39,931 bases of DNA, taken from NCBI GenBank assembly GCA_049999805.1, contig JBNGIO010002643.1, positions 1-39,931 on the forward strand, written 5' to 3'. Made by a program: the position numbers and the translations under genes. How positions within the stretch are numbered: the first letter of the stretch is position 1; the number at the start of each line of letters is the position of its first letter. Positions 25,196 to 38,382 of the stretch are shown here, piece by piece. This DNA comes from Folioceros fuciformis (Eukaryota). The notes under the pieces were generated by a model. The model did no database searches. It saw only the letters and a program-made list of their open reading frames with translations, and was not told where the DNA came from.

Positions 25196-26440
25196 TCACA
25201 ACAAGGCCCACGATTGGGGATGGGGCAACGCAGGCCTCGCATTATTCCACGTAGATTCAAGCCAGTCCAGCATCTCAGTCGACTTCAAACTGGTGAAGGC
25301 ATGAAAGCCGAAAGCCAAACTGAGCTCCATGGCCACCGATTTCTTGACCCATGACCACTCCGAATTTCCCACCGCCGTCGGCAGCAGATGCAGAGACTCC
25401 ACCAGTACGTCAAAGTCCCACGGCTTCTCCACCGTCGTCTCCTCGAAATCTGTCTCCCAAGTCCCTGGCTCAGGTGGCCTCAGGAAGCCATCGGAATCCA
25501 GATACTTGTGCACGCTCAGAGCCTGGTAGACGGTCGCTGAAACAGGAGCTTCAAGTCCCACAATCCGCTCCGTGAAAAAGGTCTCGTTGATGGGGAGCGG
25601 GTCGCATACAACGGACCCCACAGGAATGCCCTTGGCACCGAGCTGTTGAATGTGACGCAAAATAACCGGTTCAGCGCCTTGGTCCCGGGGCATCTGCAGC
25701 CAAAAGAGGCACGTTCCCACATTCGTCAGAGCCCATGTCCCAGAACCATGGATGCAACAACAACGAAGCGTGTCGCGAGTGATGGTCAAGGGACAATGTG
25801 GCGATTGCGCGCGCGATGATGCACTTACATGGACGTAGAGAACGGGAGGATAGGAGGCGGCCTCCGCGGCTTCCACAGCGGAATCCTGCCCTGCGCACAC
25901 CATGAGAAGCATGCCGGCGATTTGCAGGTCCGGGGCGAGCGCTAGAGTGCTGGCGAGGTCCCCGCCTTGCGAGACCCCCATCACTGTGAACGGGAGGTGC
26001 TCCAGCCGGTGCTCTCTTCTCCATTGCTGAAGGAAGCAAGCCACCATACGCACGTCCGGGTTCTCGCCCGGGACCGGGCTGAGGATCCATTCGTTGCCCC
26101 CGCTGGCGCCGGCCTGGATGGAGATGACCGCGTAGCCTCGCGCCAGAGCGGCCTTGGTCACGAGCCTCTCTTCCGGCAGGCTCGAGCAGATCGCGCAGGC
26201 GGGAGCTTCATCCCAGAAATTCTCCGCCCGCTCGTGGCTCCTCCCGTGCGCCACAAACAGGATGGCCCGGGGCTGCGCTGGGATCTGCCAGATTGCGTAT
26301 GTCCCGTTTGGAATGTTCTGGAAGGTGGGAGACAGTGGGGTGTCCTCAAGCGTCTGCACCTTCACCCCCCCATAACTCAGCACAACTGTGACACACAGCA
26401 AGACCAGGGCAAACATCCTGCTTCCTATACCTCTGCCCAT
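25196..26440 (-). CDS. Secreted alpha/beta-hydrolase-fold protein of an uncharacterised plant family; exons 26440-25829 and 25693-25196
   Basis: Signal-peptide-like FALVLLCVTVVLSYGG, then ILFVAHG...FW...C..C..LPEE...ALARGYAVISI and nucleophile elbow GVSQGG. YVH|MPRD is joined across a GT-AG intron (25828-25694). Confidence 0.8.
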   Translation of the reverse strand: MGRGIGSRMFALVLLCVTVVLSYGGVKVQTLEDTPLSPTFQNIPNGTYAIWQIPAQPRAILFVAHGRSHERAENFWDEAPACAICSSLPEERLVTKAALARGYAVISIQAGASGGNEWILSPVPGENPDVRMVACFLQQWRREHRLEHLPFTVMGVSQGGDLASTLALAPDLQIAGMLLMVCAGQDSAVEAAEAASYPPVLYVHVSASSRAQSPHCPLTITRDTLRCCCIHGSGTWALTNVGTCLFWLQMPRDQGAEPVILRHIQQLGAKGIPVGSVVCDPLPINETFFTERIVGLEAPVSATVYQALSVHKYLDSDGFLRPPEPGTWETDFEETTVEKPWDFDVLVESLHLLPTAVGNSEWSWVKKSVAMELSLAFGFHAFTSLKSTEMLDWLESTWNNARPALPHPQSWALL

Positions 26441-26813
26441 GGTGATCACCTGAAGCCAAACAAGACCCGGAGGTGAAGAGTAGACGGGATGAAGAAGATG
26501 ACTGAATTATTGTCGCCACTGACATCTCGGCAGCTGGTTTGTCCGTGCATCATCGTCAGATGGGTTACGGATGTACTCTAGATTTGGAAAGATGCGTGGG
26601 GGCTGACAAGCTTTTAAAAACTCGATTGCGTGAGCCTGAGGCCTTTCTCTGTTGGACCACAACTACATGTGATTCTGTGACAGAGAGGATTGATAGATAG
26701 GTATGAACATAGAATGTATGTGATGTGGAGACATGTTTGCGAAGAGTTCTGAGAGACTCACGTAAGAGCAGGCACGCCGTTGGCTGCATGAATCAAGGGG
26801 AGGGGATCCGAAG

Positions 26814-26877: not shown

Positions 26878-27166
26878 TCCAACTCCGCTGGAAATGAAAA
26901 TGTATTGCGAGGGGCCTGGAAGCTTTTAGGAGTCAGGGAGAGAAGCGGCGAGAAGGGCACCAAGAGACAGAAGTGAATAGGTTGTGCTGGATCGATGACG
27001 ATATTTGTTGGTGGGAACTCGGAGATGCAGGTGAGCTGTTTCTGCGAGAGGCGGAGCGGGGGCGATTTTATTTTCCTTGTGCGCCGATCAAGGTCTTACT
27101 AGTTTTGGATGGTGTTCTGCCCGTGTTGATTCAGTGCGCGAGAAGGTAAAGGCAGCTATAAGGGCC

Positions 27167-27788
27167 ATGGCGTTTGATGTCTTTCTTCGGCCGGGGAGCC
27201 ACAAGGGTTTGGGATCCCTTTTCCTTCACCGACGTGTGGGATCCCTTTTCCTTCACCGACGTGTGGGATCCGTTGGAGAGCACTGTTGGAGTGATCCGAA
27301 GCACAGCGGCATCCAGGGATGTTGCTTCCGTGATCAACACGAGGGTAGACTGGTTGGAGACTCCGACCGAGCATGTTATCAAGGCAGATTTGCCAAGTAG
27401 ATGACGGCACGACTTGTGCCCGCTGTTTCAAGATCTGGCTCATTTTGGCGAAGGTCGGCATGGATGCATGTTCTTCAACTGTCCTATTCAGCGCTGCTTG
27501 CCCGTGCCACAGCCCATGAATGTTGCGTGCAAGATTCTGGCGAGCTGAATGTGGAATTGCCATTCGTGAGGAAGGCCTGGGCAAGGAGGAAGTGAAGGTT
27601 GGGAAGTGAAGACAACACTGTGTTGGAGCTGAGCGGCGAGCGTTGCCGACAGGTCACGGTTTCGGTTGCCAGACAACGCCACGATGAATGACATCATTGC
27701 CAAGGTGGAGCACGGAGTTCTGGTGCTCCACGTTCCCAATTCCGAACCCCAGAAGGCGGAAGCTCGCAGCGCACATGTGATTGCTTAG
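27167..27788 (+). pseudogene. Cytosolic class I small heat-shock protein (HSP20) pseudogene
   Basis: WDPF...NTRVDWLETPTEHVIKADLP, then GLGKEEVKV / EDNTVLELSGER / RFRLPDNA...AKVEHGVLVLHVP in shifting frames. The conserved WHRxERxxGKF segment is absent, and a 27-bp WDPFSFTDV duplication lies at 27210-27271. Confidence 0.8.
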
Positions 27789-29328: not shown

Positions 29329-32300
29329 TTATGTCTTGACACTTGCATGCTTATGGAAAGGCCAAAGGTTAACAAGGCGCTCCAGAACTCCTCCACCTTT
29401 CATAAACAAGCCTGAGAATCCTTGCGGTGTTGTGGCTGGAGGGAAATCCTCTGCTGGCATTGCAAATGGGCGAATCAGCCTTTCCATCCTGTCCAGTGAC
29501 ATGTACGACCCTTCCTCCTGGAGTGTTTCAGACGGCAGAACGGGTAGTGTGTGATCACGATTCAGGGGTGAAGCCTGTAACATCAGGCGGTGTTAGTGCA
29601 AAGCACTGGATCTGACGTCCCCGTCCTGGCCCAAAACAACATTCAGGGAACAGATGGTATGAATTTGTCAACTCTTCACAATGTACAGCAACAAATTACC
29701 TCAAGTGGACTCAAGGCTGCCCCAGGACTAAACATGAGCTCAATACGGAACCTTCTTGGATCTTCCAGTGATACCTGAATTCAAGCAAGACAGATCTACG
29801 GTTATTCACATACCTTCATCGCATCCATCATACAAAATCAAACAAGGAAATGGAGGGAAGTGATGAGGTGCTCCTACCTCTGTATTTTCATACATCCTGA
29901 GTACTATGTGCGTCAAGTAATCTAACTCCTTAGTCTGGAAGATTCTCAGTAGAGCATCATTGGAAAAAAGCCCTGCTTCCCCTTGCAATGAATCATCCAG
30001 GTAGCAATATCGAAGGACATTGATCAACGAATGAATGTGTGATTCCTGCATTTACAAGAAAATCAATTTACCACATGCTGAAACCGCATAATTCACAACT
30101 CCCACCCCCAAGAAAGCGGGAACAGACTTACGGATGTGAAATAGAGGCGTGTGCGCACGTGCCTCTCTGGGGTCCTCACGTTAGCATACCTAGTTCACAA
30201 GACATGTACTGATTTGGTGGGTTTCTCAAGCAAAAACAGTTGCTTCTGTCCAGTTGAGACGGGAACCATAAGCTCCGTATCACTGACATGCACAGCATTG
30301 CTCGAAAGAGGTATTAACCGTAAGAAAGAACGCTTACTTGGGATCCAAACGATACTGTGTTTCTTTGTCATCGTCGTCATCTGGGTCCAAAGACTTCTCG
30401 CTTGAGCTCGACCTCCGGGACGTTTCCGTCTTTATCTTGCCATTGGGTTTCTCATTTGACCTACAAGTGAAATCATCAAAACTAGCTCTTGAAGTCCTTG
30501 AAGGTGACGGTGCCTTTGAGGCATCAGGAGTGCTCTTCAGCCCTGCTACGCTAATAGCCTCCTCTCTTGTATTGCGCAAGTCTATCATTATTTTCCCAAG
30601 CAATCTTCGTGCAATCTGCTCATATTGGCAGACGGACCGTGTTAGTCTGGGAAGGCTATATCATATAATTGCTTTTAAGCAAGTAAGTCTATACCTTGGA
30701 CCCTATCTTCAATTTGTGCTTCGGATTTATGCCATACTCGTTCGGAATAACGCCATCCGCAAGAGCCTGTACAACGTAGGTTAACATGTCGAACAAGCCA
30801 ACTGGGAGTGGGTCATGAGTCCATAGAAATACGTTTGTTCTTTGAGCACATGGTCAAGTTGTATTACCTTAGCTACTTTGTAAAGCTCATCCAGTCCATC
30901 AAGACCAAGATGTGCATTATGGAGAAGGTCATACCTACACCAAGCGAAGTGGCAGAACCCGTTGGCAAGCCTATCAAAAAACCCAACAACGCAGCTATTG
31001 ATTGCATGGCACCTAACACTCCCTCTCGCAAACCAAACCTGCTGCTTACTTTGCAGAATCGTAGATGTCAGGGATTTTGCTGATATCAAATCGCCTGCAT
31101 TACTGTATTCCGTCAGCTCCCGACAAAATAAGAAAAAGAAACCTCAAAAACAGTATATTCTACATCCTGAGAAAGTGAAACATATCCCTCCTCAGAGCGT
31201 AGATAATTCACCACAAGCAATTGTGGGCAGCATTGTTCAAGCCATGCTTGTAAAGACAGAAAACCCCTCTTTAGGACGATAATGTGAAAAACGCACCCTT
31301 TACGTTCATTGAAAATGTCACGCTCTAGCTTTTTCCACCGAGCATACATCAGCAAGAAGCCCTCACTACCACATGGGCGACCAGCTTCAATGCAGTCAGC
31401 GTCCATGTTCGTTTTACCCAGTGCACGCGCTTGATCATAAGGAGGGGGTTCCTCATCGAAGGAAGGCTCAACAAGCCGTTCTTCTGCTTTACAAAGAATC
31501 TTTACCTGTGCTGTAACTCTTTGAGTAAGATCAACCTGCCATCAGACAATCGATGCAGTTTACTTCACGAATCAGGCAATAGATCTTGTGGTGCATTCAA
31601 AGCAGGCACTATGGACTGAGACAGTTGGACTTTGTACAAACCACGTCATGATGCCTCAATTTCAAGAACGAAGTCGCAGCTTGCTTACCAGGTCTTTCAT
31701 CAGCTGCAAAGAGTTGGCCGGTAAACCCCCACCATCAACCATCCACGGGCAGTCCGAGTTTGATGCAGGTGGTGACTGGTCTTCATCCGTAATGATATCA
31801 TAGAGTCTGGCCTGCATGAGCTCACACTGAGTCATTGCTACTGGAAGTTTCACAGCCATCCAGCTATAGAAAACCTTCAAGTTTGGCTTCTCTATTGGTC
31901 TTCAGCATACCTTAGCTTCTTCCATCTCAATGCTTGCAGTGTCTAGACCATCAAGCATAGGGGAATCTTTGCTAACGAGAGAGACCTGAGAAGAAACCAA
32001 TTTCCACTTGCCTACCCTCAAAAAATAATGAGTGGCCAGCTGAGGTCAACATACAAAGGAATAATGCTCCTCCTACCAGGATGGGTGTTAGCTGTCCCTC
32101 TAGATCCAGCAGACCTTTCGCAAACGCAGCTGCTGACATCTGTGTTCAAAACAGGTAGAATCATGTACCATTTCAGGATCACAGGACACCCAATAATCTG
32201 ATGACTTGAACTTTGTGATGGCGAGGCCAAGCTGCATAACGGAACCTCCAAACAACACGAACAACACACAAATAGCAGAGAAGTCCATGACACACTTGAA

Positions 32301-35300
32301 CTCGCCCCTCGTCTGAACTGTAGATCTTCAAATCATGCCTGTAAGTGCTATGCAGCCTGAGCAAACCTGTCCCTTCCCCTGCAGATACAGTTTTTACATG
32401 ACTAAGGTAGACAGCGTTAAGTAGCATACATGGGCAAGGATTCAACTTCTTGAAGCATAAACCCCACACCTGGATACATGATATTCCTGAAGGAGCGCCC
32501 TAGCTCCTCGGCCTGCATGGTCAGAGAATCACAGCATCATTACAAGTATGGCAGAGAAATAGATCAGATTCACTACCATTCAACACTGCCAAGCGCTCAC
32601 CTGCTTCCGACCGGAGTGTGTAAGAACCCCACCATATTTGAGAACCATCAACGCTTCGGATGGCTTCTCCTTGTCAAATTCCTCATCATCCTCATCTGAT
32701 GATGATAAAGTTGTCCACTTTTGTGGCTTCAACTGAACCTTGCGATAAATGCCCGAAAAATGGCCTCCCTGGTTCAGACCCAACAATCACGCTGCAATTT
32801 TCTCCACAGAAATGAACAATGACCGAACAAGATGCAACGGCAATCACGCTGTATATCCACATAAATGAACCACAACCTAACAAGATGCAACATGTTCAAA
32901 TTCGAGCACATATTTGAAGAGCACGGAAGATTCACAATACCTCTTCCAGCACAGCTTTAACGTGTCGGAGTTTCTCTGCATGTTCCAAATCTTCAGCCTC
33001 ACTATCACTTTCCTTACCTGACCTGCAGTAAGTGAAACTCTCCATCAAAAACTTGCGAAACAATAAAAATCATTGATTATGTAGCTCGTCTATGGCTTTG
33101 AACCTTGCACGAGGTACTAGAGCGCGTGTTGCATCAAGCAGGTCCTGAAGCTGCACCGCACTCTTTAACTTGGCCTGCCGAAAGCAAAAGCACAGCAAAG
33201 GGTTTACAGGTGAGAGAGTGACAAAGAAAACGAATTTCCTCTGGAGTACCCAAACCCATCATGCACAGCACCCAATTACATATTGAAGAACGGAGGAAGA
33301 CCTCAGATCTTGGTCTATTGCTGTTATACTTGAGCATTAGGTCCAACAACCGGTCTTGCGTGACTTTCATTTTCACCTTCTGCTTTGGTGTACGGTCTCC
33401 ACTGCACTCATGAATGAAGGAGTCAGCGCTGCAGCATGAAGAGCGATAGAAAATAGAAGGAGGCCCTTACAAACACTTACTGACGGAGAACTGCAATGAC
33501 ACAACGAAGCTCTTCTGACTGTCCAAAAGTGCCTCCTGTTAAAATAGTGCTGCCCTGCCTAGAAATTTCTCCAGTCCTTTCTGGCTCAAGATGCCATGGC
33601 AGGATGGGAAGTGTGGAAGACAGATGAGGGGCCTTGGCTTCAAGAAACATAGTCCTGAGCACACATGCTGCATCATCGTAATACCTGCCACTCTCGGAAG
33701 TGAGGAATCGTTTGGCACTCCACACTTACGAAGACTTCTCAATTCTGTGTGCCATCTAAATACCCAGTATATTCAAATGGTGCACACGGCAAGCAGACAG
33801 AAAACGCAACTCACTTGTACGAATTCTTCACAAAGCTCCATCCATTCACGTCACAAACATAGGATCTCCCTTGAGACCGTAAAAGGTCGAAACCGCAGAC
33901 CTGAGTGGAAATAAAAATATCATCAGGTGCGAGTAGAATTCTCAAGGCCATCATGGTACTTGATGTACAGATCCCCAACAGATACTGCGAGGCTGAGGCG
34001 TGTGACTTTGGATCCTTGCCAAGCACAAATATGATGAACAAGTACGTGGTAACCATTGCTGGAAAACAGGACGAATGATCGTGCCAAGAAACGTGAAATA
34101 TAAGCTCACCGCTTGGCCAAATGCTACAACAACATCTCGAGCCATTTGCTTCTCTGCTGGTGTTAACAAGACTGGATACCTGACCTGTGCAAATACAATT
34201 CAATCCACATGACCGTTGTGACTGGAGACCTGCAGCAGCAACATACTGACAAAGTTGTCCATACCTCCTTGCCATCTGCACTTCTCATGACAACACCATC
34301 AACCACAGGGGACTTCCGTGCCTCAGCATGGGCATATTCTGGACCAACTGTGTAGACCTGCAAGCAACACGAGATGTTTCAATCAAAGTGCTCTCAACGC
34401 TAAATAGCTTTGAACAGGACCTCTGCAATCAGTTAGAGAGTTGTGACACGCATGATAAGATGGATGAATGTTGTTTATGTTATGACACATTCGAAGGCTA
34501 CCTTGACATCGGTACCTCCAGTAGTAAGAAACTCTTCATAAATATAGGACCCTCCTCTCCGTACTCTCCTTGTGTCAGGGTAAAACTCGCTTGAGCGTTC
34601 TACCACCTGTATTCACAGGAAGGAAAGGTAGCAGAGAGGGAAACAAGTACAAGTAAGAGCTGTTGTTCATGAACCCAGATAATGATCCAAGTCCCATGAT
34701 AACCGTCCTTGGCTCCCTTTTCTGTCGATCGGCAATAAGCTGTTAAAGTAAAACCTAACGAACCCGGATTGTCATTTGTGTGCCATTCAGCTTTGATTAT
34801 TCCTCCGGAAATCAATACTTACATGGCCACTGCGATCTTGTATCCAGTACTTGCTACCTTCCTCACTGGCTGTGAGGTTCATGCCACTTCATTTGCTAAT
34901 GGGGAATTACACATGGATAAGGCTGACACAGACTTCTCTGAACCACAATGTCTCACGGACTTTGAAGGCGAGATTCTGCAAGTTCAGATCTGCATTGGCT
35001 GTAGAAGTGTAAAAGTTAGGTCAGGTGGTGAGCCATGCGACTCATTTGTTGAGTACAATAAAGAGACCAAATGGATGACGGTTGGCTCAAACAGATCCGT
35101 GAGGCCAGATTTGTGACCTACAACTGAACAGAAATGCTCAGAGATTGTGAGCAGGCAATGTTGAGAACCATTTACCAGAGCAAATCACAGATTAGTTCAA
35201 ATGCTTCAAGGACACAGGAGTTGTGCACAAATTCTGTGACGATGCAGCATTGGGAACATAGAGAGTGATCACCGCAAGCACATCTGAATCACGACAAAGG

Positions 35301-37225
35301 CAACAGAGGCGATAATAAACAAAAGGAGCAACAGGTTTGGTGCTAATGCAAATATTCGTTCATGAAGATTTGGCACACACAAAACCTTCCAAATGTTGAG
35401 CCTGCTCAGGGTGAAAAGGAAGAAGACGAAGCTCATGACTTCTACAGGGGATCTACCCGTTGCTAACTAGTACCTTGACGTCTGTTCCTCCCGTGGGCAT
35501 GAATGCTTCATAGATGTAGGAGCCTCCCCTACGAACCCTTCGCAGTTGAGGATGGAATTCACTTGATCGATTCCCGACCTATACATCGCAGCATCAGTGC
35601 CACTTAACTGGATGCCGAGTCATGAGCTCAATGAGAGTAAAATGGGTTCCACACATACCTTACGGAAAAGCTCTTTCATCCCTCCTCCCGCTGAACTTGG
35701 GTAGTAAATCATCACACTGTGGTTGTCACCTACTCAAACAAAAGTCAAAGTTGAGATACAAAGTATAGCGGACACTTTTGAGCCTTTTCTTTGCGGAGGT
35801 CAAATGCGAAGAAGACGAAGATACCATCGACAGGCTTCTCAACAAAGGGCTTCATGATCCTTTTGCCGTGAACTTCAACATAATCTTCTTCCTCAACGAA
35901 GTAGTCAAGGTCCTGGTCCGGGTACTCTCTATTGACAAGGGCGTAGGTGGGAGTGGGGATCCCATACTCTTCCAGTCGCTACAACAGATGAGACATCCCC
36001 GGGATAAGTAATTCACGGCCCTCATCGCTATCGATTTCTTACATAACATGTTGCTCGTTACTCAGGAACCACATGAGGCGGATTACAGTTGAGAACATAC
36101 AGAGTAGACCTTCCTTCGATCGTGGAGAAGGTGTTGCGAGCCCAACTCATTCACCAAAAAGGGCCTGCGGTGACAGCGAACCAACAATGAGCACGAGGAC
36201 AGGGAGGCGAATTGCAAAACGCACTCAGTTCCCGTGGGCACCGAGACCGCTCTAACTGGGAAGACGAGAGCTCACTTTCTGAGTATCGCATACGCCTCGG
36301 CCTTCTCCAGAGGGTAGCCAGTCGAATAGAAAGCTATCAGACAGTCGCAGATTGGCCAGCTGTAGTGCAACCGTAAAGTGTTTCAACAATCACGATATCA
36401 GGAGTATCCAAATGCGCGCTGCACAACAAACATCGGGGAACAAACTGCGACAGCAAATGTATTTCGACTGGCTCAACATTTGAGCTGCGACTCATTGTAA
36501 AACTCGTATTTCAAGAATCATACGTACTTCTCGACAGGTTCCTCCAGAATGACTTTGTCTCCGAAAATAACCACCTGAAATAAATCCGTCAACACAAGCA
36601 GCACACATGAGCGACGAACTTTTGCCGCCACGCTCTCCACACAAAGTCAAGAATCGAAACCCCAGAGTCAGGAAGATTCCAGCAACATCAACCCGTCGCC
36701 GTGCATGCCACCGAGACAAGAAGAACTCCGCGGAGTACAAGAAAGCGTTAACGCGCTCATCACCGTACCTCGAATTCCCCAAAATCCTGAAGCCTCTTCA
36801 AAATCTCGGTCATAGGAGCTGATAGAGCCTGCAACACCAGAGGGAAGAGTCAAATTTCACAATAGCAGACACAACCCATCGCCTCCGCTCACCACCCCAC
36901 CAACGATTCTCACACGGCGCGTTCGAACATCATGCGACCCGACTCAACTCTTTCAGAACTCAAAATTAATCCCACCAACCACCAACTACTCTGACACCCC
37001 TTTAGTCACAAGAACACGAGGCTGGAGGTCCCACCCCACAAACGAGGACCCACAAAAATTCCCCCTCAATTCGTCCTCCGAACCGCACCACTCCCTCCGC
37101 TCGCTACTCACCTTCTTCTCCAGCACACAAACACCCACCACCACCTTGGACGGGTAGTAGGCCCCATCCCCGCCACCGAACACGCTTGCGGCAGTGGCGG
37201 CAACATTCTGTCCTCCGGTCCCCAT
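29329..37225 (-). CDS. VIH: Diphosphoinositol-pentakisphosphate kinase / inositol-pyrophosphate phosphatase (PPIP5K, VIP1/VIH family), many exons
   Basis: Kinase motifs [40 protein letters not shown] and VCGFDLLRS...[10 protein letters not shown]. The phosphatase RHGDRTPKQ is split by an intron, followed by [32 protein letters not shown] and C-terminal [12 protein letters not shown]. Confidence 0.95.
34502..34606 (-). other. PPIP5K kinase-domain exon, copy B (105 nt, phase 0): [35 protein letters not shown]
   Basis: cag| acceptor and |gta donor; open frame; paralogous to 35474-35578. Confidence 0.9.
35474..35578 (-). other. PPIP5K kinase-domain exon, copy A (105 nt, phase 0): [35 protein letters not shown]
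   Basis: tag| acceptor and |gta donor; open frame. Confidence 0.9.
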
Positions 37226-38382
37226 TCTGCAGCGGGGAAACGGCAATCGAAACAGGCGAGATCACTCCCTCCACGTGCAACACCACTGCATGCTCGAATA
37301 CCCCTGGCTTCCCCCAACATGTAGCTCCCGGAATTCTCCCATAGCGCCAGGAATTCCGCCCTCCAGGAACACAACCAACAAACACGCAGGGAGCGCAACC
37401 TGTGGGTGGTAACAGCGCGTGGCTTCGACTCTTGGCAGCCCGGAGGGAAACACTTTGATTTGTTCAGCCCAGGCCACGGCAGGCCAGGCCAAAATGGTCT
37501 AAAACCAGGCCAGACTGGGCCAACGCAAGGAAAAAAAAAACCGAGACACAGTCCAGCCGGCAGGGATGTCGCTTAATCACGGCTCACAACCTGCGCTTGA
37601 CCTAACTGATCCCAGTCTCATGACTCCCAGTGGTTGGTACGATCAACGATGCTGGGAATCTGGATTGGACGTTGTGTACTTGCCGGCACTGACATTCTCG
37701 TTGTCATGCACAAGGGCGAAGCCAAGAAAGGGTCGCCGAGCTGCCAGTCTGAAGTGAAAAAAAAAGCCACCCACAAACTTATCGGAATCTGGGAGCTGGA
37801 ATCTGAACCACGCGTGGATGGCCGCCGCGTGGACTGGGTGCACTGAATCTTCCCCGGGATCCATTCTGGCGAAACTTCATTTCGCCCCACCGGGCTGCTA
37901 TCCCGCCGACACGACCAGATGTTGCCCTGGGATTTCCTGACCTTGGAAACCAGGGGGCCCTACACTTCGTCACCACACTCGTTTTTAGCTTCTAGCATTT
38001 GGCATCGCATCAATGTCTTCACTCCCGGACCCGCCTACAGCTGCACAGCCTTCATGCGACTTGCCCCTGTTCACCACTGACGAGCCGCCGTCTATTCTTG
38101 TAACCATCTCCATCTCCAGCTTGTGTCGTCAGCCTCTCAGCTTTTTGATCTGGCTTGAGCTCACCGAGACTCGGGATACGCACACAGCGTGGATGGATGG
38201 ATGACTACAGCGGTTTCTCTCGATCCAAGTCATCGGGTATGCCACGATTCCAAGCACATTCCTAACACCACGCAGCTTCATTCAAATCTTGCGTTATCTC
38301 AGGCTGCTGACGCACTCCAGGTGTGTGGTACAGCGTGCTCTGAACACGTATATACATACAGAAGTGGACAAGACCAGCCTAT

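Follow-up and report, generated by a model that had tools for sequence, protein, structure and literature searches.

The 39,931-nt contig JBNGIO010002643.1 of Folioceros fuciformis (GenBank assembly GCA_049999805.1; analysed over its whole length and called the window here) carries on its minus strand a gene of the PPIP5K/VIH family of inositol-pyrophosphate kinases, in which one exon of the active site is present twice. PPIP5K/VIH enzymes make InsP8, through which plants signal their phosphate and energy status to SPX-domain receptors. We call the two copies exon A and exon B, in the order of transcription, and the exons on either side of the pair prev and next. Judged from their sequences, both copies have long been maintained as coding exons under purifying selection. 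In the assembled transcripts at hand, exon A is a constitutive exon, and exon B was found only in RNAs of low depth that also hold exon A together with intronic exons (x1 and x2) or a retained intron. The sequence evidence and the transcript evidence disagree on the use of exon B. The reading we prefer, tentatively and as somewhat short of probable, is that exon A is the default exon and that exon B is conserved as an alternative exon, with a productive mRNA that is rare or made only under certain conditions.

Divergence of the two exon copies

The initial annotation of this region had described two 105-nt phase-0 exons with canonical splice sites, about 870 nt apart, at 34502-35578. This description was accurate: the intron between them is 867 nt long, the sites are AG/GT on the minus strand, and the interval has the last base of B and the first base of A as its exact limits. 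The acceptor and donor are tatag/GTCGGG and GTCAAG/gtacta for exon A, and atacag/GTGGTA and GTCAAG/gtagcc for exon B. The other introns of the gene that were seen as joints measure 80-209 nt, in contrast to the 867 nt between A and B. When a full-length plant homologue from Camellia (P0019) was compared with the window by tblastn, this exon alone was matched twice; exon A matches P0019 at 33 of 36 residues. As expected of a mutually exclusive pair, the two exons adjoin, are homologous and have equal length and phase.

Exons A and B are identical at 27 of 35 residues and at 69 of 105 nucleotides (66% in DNA). Most of the differences (26 of 36; binomial P = 2e-6) fall at third codon positions, only 9 of 35 of which are identical. 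When 36 changes were placed at random in a neutral simulation, none of 200000 placements gave an open frame with at most 8 residue changes. These two results bear out the initial proposal of an old duplication with selection on both copies. By the NG86 method, the proportion of nonsynonymous differences (pN) was 0.147 and that of synonymous differences (pS) was 0.95, which is saturated. Each of 36 distinct orthologous exons, drawn from plant-derived metagenome contigs, agrees with A at a larger share of third positions (0.29-0.49) than B does. The synonymous sites are therefore completely randomised, and A and B separated long ago. At first and second codon positions the identity of A and B is 0.857, and that of B and the exons of other plants is 0.70-0.87. 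Randomised synonymous sites together with 27 of 35 residues kept imply that, over almost its entire history, exon B was translated in frame. That requires an mRNA with B in the open frame, for which prev-B-next is the simplest form.

Exon B was also compared among relatives. In two of them (organisms B and C), it differs from the window at 1 base in 105, at 34562; we read it, from the sequence and the contig alignments, as a synonymous change (GTA to GTT). Next to exon B on the same contig of X2 are 303 nt of non-coding sequence, with 15 substitutions and 2 indels relative to the window. The difference in rate is marginal (one-sided Fisher P = 0.053), and the changes are shared between relatives, so recent constraint on B amounts to one weak observation. 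In a tree of the 105-nt sequences, A and B have long branches (0.42 and 0.63) and lie in one weakly supported group (81/93); the tree does not resolve them as sisters.

In a scan of metagenomes, 77 loci with this exon were found, of which 42 have at least 1200 nt on both sides. A second copy of the exon (at least 25 bits) was present in none of the 77. The duplication appears to be absent from all other plants with sequences available for this comparison, the nearest of which have about 77% DNA identity. In 69 of the loci the next exon was located as well, with an intervening intron of 0-1036 nt; about 18 of the 69 have no intron before it and are apparently cDNA-like (metatranscriptome) contigs.

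Exons A and B align to positions 179-212 (E = 2.9e-7) and 182-212 (E = 5.9e-6) of chain 3t7a_A, the solved kinase domain of human PPIP5K2, and both alignments end at the lysine of ..TDVK, chain position 212. Three of the 8 residues in 35 at which A and B differ lie within YE(A/E)F(M/L)(P/T), that is, YEAFMP in A and YEEFLT in B, a stretch that we take to be the adenine/nucleotide hinge. For residue roles in the YEEF stretch, the sole mention found was a docking passage in a retracted paper (PMC5063353), on which we did not rely. In human PPIP5K2, Arg213 and Lys248 are needed for InsP6 binding (PMC3564036). With an offset of 36 between the two numberings, the arginine of the substrate-binding FRK motif, which ends prev, would be Arg213, the lysine of DVK, which ends both A and B, would be Lys248, and the duplicated exon would be the equivalent of residues 215-248. 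The initial annotation had assigned this segment to the active site, after FRK and up to DVK, and the alignment of the final lysine with human Lys248 agrees with that assignment.

In the 120 homologues retrieved, Gly2, Asn3 and Glu25 of the exon are invariant. Exon A has Ala25 where all 120 have Glu. Exon B has Thr12 and Thr28, each found once in the 120. Gly18, which is rare (2 of 120), is common to A and B. The Leu-Thr hinge variant of exon B is also present in two short database proteins, P0262 and P0263. For both, the surrounding sequence points to a different exon structure: in P0263 the hinge stretch runs straight into VYTVGP on a contig of 180 kb, so that P0263 probably represents a distant lineage. 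Given the hinge variant in these proteins and the open frame of prev-B-next, the residues of exon B appear compatible with function.

Transcript joints around exons A and B

As transcripts we used the Logan contigs of four runs: X1, whose sequence is identical to the window, and X2, X3 and X10, from three related organisms. The library type of the four runs is unrecorded; their contigs skip stretches bounded by GT and AG and therefore derive from spliced RNA. Contigs of this kind lose rare variants and show presence, not absence, and their depths are rough and give no precise ranking of forms. Stretches without cover (exon B in X1; parts of the intron in X1, X3 and X10) were not used as evidence.

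Exon A was joined to both of its neighbours in all four runs. The joint of prev to A and the joint of A to next, which skips 1116 nt including exon B, were each found in four of the four, and a direct joint of prev to next in none of the four. The joint of A to x1 was found in two runs (X1 and X2), as was that of x1 to x2, with the acceptor at 34998 in X1 and at 34989 in X2. Exon A was joined directly to x2 (34989>35474) in one run, X2, and x2 was joined to exon B (34604>34821, cut +2) in one run, X3. The acceptor of exon B is thus in use.

Contigs cover exon B in X2 (record 7, with the intron between x2 and B retained) and in X3 (record 13), and a contig of X10 (record 5) covers the first 38 nt of B along with its upstream intron. 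In X2 and X3, the match between the B contigs and the window ends at 34500, and 19 more letters follow, which are not listed as loose ends. The A-to-next contigs of the same two runs likewise have a 19-letter side. We infer that the donor of exon B is joined to next in these two organisms; the joint itself is unlisted.

On translation, prev-A-next, prev-B-next, prev-A-B-next and prev-next all have open frames. Forms that join A to x1 or x2, or that retain the intron between x2 and B, reach a stop 2-5 codons after A. For example, x1 joined to A reads MCLR and then stops (splice sites ttcag/ATGTGC and CTCTG/gtaaat), and x2 shifts the frame by 2. The stop precedes exon B in these forms, and in those that are spliced B is out of frame as well, so all the B-containing RNAs seen are unproductive. 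The forms with x1 or x2 are presumably degraded.

The A-B intron is covered in parts by contigs of all four runs, and nearly all of it is covered in X2 (depth 3-7). Two exon-free intron bins (33688-33781 and 33970-34063) had no cover in any run. A contig of organism B over part of the A-B intron differs from the window at 21 of 188 letters, and x1 and x2 appear poorly conserved, unlike exons. In light of the concept of poison exons, or regulated unproductive splicing, x1 and x2 show a partial likeness: they are spliced in after A in two of the four runs and bring a stop within 5 codons. Unlike poison exons, they are not conserved as exons.

We considered x1 as a decayed third copy of the duplicated exon and rejected it, as its global alignment gave z = 0.7 to A (reached by 254 of 1000 shuffles) and z = 0.2 to B. 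The best local match of the whole A-B intron to A or B lay within the range of shuffles, and no further copy of this intron was found within the window. A 21-nt direct repeat between x1 and A (D1, 76%) was treated as chance. A 14-nt direct repeat that flanks B plus 465 nt (D2) is at chance level, about 4 such pairs being expected by our estimate, and an inverted repeat (I2; 20 nt, 75%, core of 9 bp) is, by our estimate, near chance for 870 nt. No repeat or terminal repeat pointing to transposon capture was found in the window. Exon x1 itself contains an imperfect palindrome of about 52 nt (35200-35251), which is 77% self-complementary by blastn and has 29-nt arms at 79%.

Exon x2 contains an ATG (34880-34882, minus strand) in frame with exon B across the x2-to-B joint; a protein started there would lack the first half of the kinase domain. 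A short protein from this ATG was rejected as the cause of the conservation of B, because such a protein would have no need for the ATP-grasp motifs still present in B.

Readings of exon B

In the reading that we prefer, an exon of a land-plant PPIP5K/VIH gene would have been duplicated in tandem long ago. The normal mRNA would be prev-A-next, with exon B and the 867-nt intron removed as parts of one 1116-nt intron. Exon B would most likely be a rarely used alternative that replaces A (prev-B-next), kept as coding sequence and with working splice sites, and its use would yield a second form of the kinase with 8 of 35 residues changed. The RNAs with exon B that were seen are unproductive forms that stop right after A because of x1, x2 or a retained intron, and B would be translated in a B-only mRNA.

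Several observations weigh against this reading. The joint of prev to B, which defines a B-only mRNA, occurs in the contigs of none of the four runs, and in X1, the run identical to the window, no contig lies over exon B. In X2, intronic forms at depth 3-7 were still assembled beside a main form at a contig depth of about 120-140; as these were assembled and B-only mRNA was not, B-only mRNA would be very rare there. Every RNA seen to contain B also holds A and a premature stop. Mutually exclusive exons are defined by one exon in each mRNA and the presence of both single forms, and the contigs gave A-only forms in four of four runs and B-only forms in none. The mutually exclusive splicing proposed initially is therefore not what the contigs show: prev is joined to A and A to next in all four runs, but neither prev to B nor A to B was joined in the contigs of any of the four.

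No mechanism that could enforce exclusion was apparent either. The donors (gtatgt, gtacta and gtagcc) are not U12-like. The A-B intron is long, and both exons are multiples of three, so that a direct A-B form stays in frame. The initial annotation had also suggested a look for docking and selector pairings in the flanking introns; competing RNA pairings between the flanking and central introns did not rise above shuffled controls. Between the prev-A and A-B introns, 30 of 40 shuffles did as well as the best duplex; between the B-next and A-B introns, 13 of 40 did. The best duplex of the prev-A and B-next introns, which is long and weak, was reached by 2 of 40.

Two further points against an active exon B come from homologues. 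Exon B has Val2-Glu3 where all 120 homologues have Gly-Asn. B-type sequence was found in none of 120 matches of a 'longer' search and none of 29 matches of a 'near' search (149 database proteins). This second absence is weak evidence, because the 90% clusters of the protein collection would conceal isoforms with 8 residues changed, and the collection lacks a close relative of this organism (best identity in a variable region, 64%). The initial annotation had named two signs that would speak against alternative splicing, namely absence of one exon from transcripts and its absence or decay in relatives. The first was found as far as productive contigs are concerned, since they lack B; the second was not, since B has not decayed and carries a single synonymous change in two relatives.

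An unlikely but substantial alternative is that exon B now occurs only in unproductive A-x1/x2-B RNAs that lower the amount of functional VIH mRNA, and that its conservation is a legacy of earlier use. All the B-containing RNAs seen, with exon A and a stop 2-5 codons later, agree with this, as does the lack of the prev-to-B joint in the four runs; so does the contig cover of the A-B intron, as the other introns have none. However, the randomised synonymous sites and the 27 of 35 residues kept imply that B was translated for almost all of its history. Among the four relatives, the flanks of B have changed by about 5% and B itself by 1 synonymous change, and sequence 3' of a stop has no reason to remain open. 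We leave a small chance to readings outside those weighed here. Slightly smaller is the chance we give to a combination in which A and B are ancient, lineage-restricted alternative exons of the active site. The two kinase forms would differ in their hinge residues (YEAFMP and YEEFLT), and exclusion would be enforced in an unusual manner for exons that are multiples of three: transcripts that use the donor of A and keep B would pass via the stop of x1 or x2 to decay, leaving only A-only and B-only mRNAs productive.

Exon B could also be a fragment of a diverged paralogous VIH gene, an exon with its splice sites, that was inserted or converted into the intron, so that the divergence between A and B would be that of two separately selected genes. 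This improbable origin would account for low nonsynonymous and saturated synonymous divergence without any B-only mRNA, and would fit the finding that at codon positions 1 and 2 B is no nearer to A than to the exons of other plants (0.857 compared with 0.70-0.87). Against it, B was in place before the four relatives split and has changed less than its flanks since. The rare Gly18 is common to both copies, which also fall in the same weakly supported group of the tree. No repeat, terminal repeat or intron copy that would mark an insertion was found in the window, the 14-nt direct repeat being at chance level, and B lacks the Gly-Asn that all 120 functional genes carry.

Two readings have very little left for them. 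Constitutive splicing of A and B together would give a kinase with a 35-residue internal repeat. Its frame is open, and prev-A-B-next would indeed duplicate the segment in frame, as the initial annotation had pointed out, but A is joined to next past B in all four runs and to B in none, which makes this reading very improbable. That the duplicate is an assembly artefact is less probable still: no point in its favour was found, the copies are just 66% identical in DNA, and in three other organisms B is found on contigs that also include its own flanking intron.

Tandem-duplicated exon pairs are a known kind of structure, and A and B are such a pair, now in the active site of an InsP8 synthase. 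The Kassiopeia database predicts mutually exclusive exon candidates from neighbouring position and from similarity in length, frame, splice-site type and sequence (PMC3923563). Exons 7a and 7b of human ATE1 are mutually exclusive exons that arose by tandem duplication (PMC7797038). For plants, PMC3923563 describes mutually exclusive splicing as rarely reported and lists 166 exons in 66 Arabidopsis genes as predicted only. Measured against such clusters, A and B are alike in adjacency, length, frame, splice-site type and similarity, and both have been kept open. They are unlike them in that the contigs show no one-or-other pattern (A-only in four runs, B-only in none), and no enforcement by competing RNA structure, steric limit, U12 donor or frame was found. 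The pair has the predictive features given in PMC3923563 but not, in these contigs, the defining splicing pattern. No paper on alternative splicing of this exon was among those listed by our literature searches on PPIP5K/VIH; in PMC4063336, 'mutually exclusive' refers to protein partners.

The gene is like other PPIP5K/Vip1/VIH kinases in its collinearity with plant VIH and in the alignment of A and B to 3t7a_A, and is set apart from the 77 metagenome loci by its second exon copy. An Avena sativa model in UniRef (P0002) likewise holds this exon twice. In P0002, two consecutive exons are repeated (VGNRSS..DVK plus VYTVGSGYAHAE..) and the repeats are identical in sequence, unlike the old and diverged A and B. 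The identity points to a recent duplication or to an artefact of assembly or annotation, unrelated to the A/B pair.

If exon B is used, one gene would give two enzymes that differ beside the substrate-binding arginine and lysine and in the presumed nucleotide hinge. This would be a natural experiment on how those residues set the affinity for ATP or substrate, and a well-supported plant case of alternative use of duplicated exons, few of which are documented. That a choice between A and B tunes InsP8 synthesis, as had been proposed, is speculation. If exon B is not used, a coding-like signature persists at this locus without detectable productive expression, and the locus still reveals stop-introducing intronic exons in a VIH gene.

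Gene structure and neighbouring features

The identity of the gene rests on its collinearity with known PPIP5K/VIH genes, with an N-terminal ATP-grasp kinase domain followed by a domain like the histidine acid phosphatases. Residues 19-1043 of P0019 matched the window in collinear tblastn segments from 36831 down to 29338, with 40-92% identity. P0019 itself has precomputed PF18086 and PF00328 domains, and the database matches to the gene carry the names PPIP5K, VIP1 and VIP2 and the same two domains. Judged by eye, the first coding exon probably lies within the open reading frame 36986..37261. The features are listed in Table 1.

Table 1. Features of the PPIP5K/VIH-type gene and of its duplicated exon in the window.
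Feature	Position	Strand	Evidence
PPIP5K/VIH-type gene, ATP-grasp kinase and histidine-phosphatase domains, about 30 exons	29338..37261	-	tblastn collinearity, names of database matches
Upstream constitutive exon (prev), ends ..MKELFRK	35659..35729	-	joints 35727>35823 and 35576>35657 (cut +2) in 4/4 runs; translation
Exon A, default copy, 105 nt, phase 0	35474..35578	-	joints prev to A and A to next in 4/4 runs
A-B intron, 867 nt	34607..35473	-	contig cover in parts
Intronic exon x1, 108 nt	35176..35283	-	joint 35283>35474 in X1 and X2; joints 34998>35176 (X1) and 34989>35176 (X2)
Intronic exon x2, 176 nt (167 nt from alternative acceptor 34989)	34823..34998	-	joints in X1, X2 and X3
Exon B, diverged copy, 105 nt, phase 0	34502..34606	-	contig cover in X2 and X3, in part in X10
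B-next intron, 144 nt	34358..34501	-	no contig piece within
Downstream constitutive exon (next), starts VYTVGPEY	34263..34357	-	joint 34355>35472 (cut +2) in 4/4 runs; translation

Two other reading frames of the window were noted. A gene for a small heat-shock protein lies at 27162-27788 on the plus strand, with an HSP20 domain at 27633-27788 (E = 1.6e-6); its upstream reading frame contains a tandem repeat of the 9-residue unit WDPFSFTDV. An uninterrupted frame of 436 residues (25199-26506, minus strand) has only a sub-threshold match, to BD-FAE, an alpha/beta hydrolase-like family (21.8 bits compared with a cutoff of 26.8).

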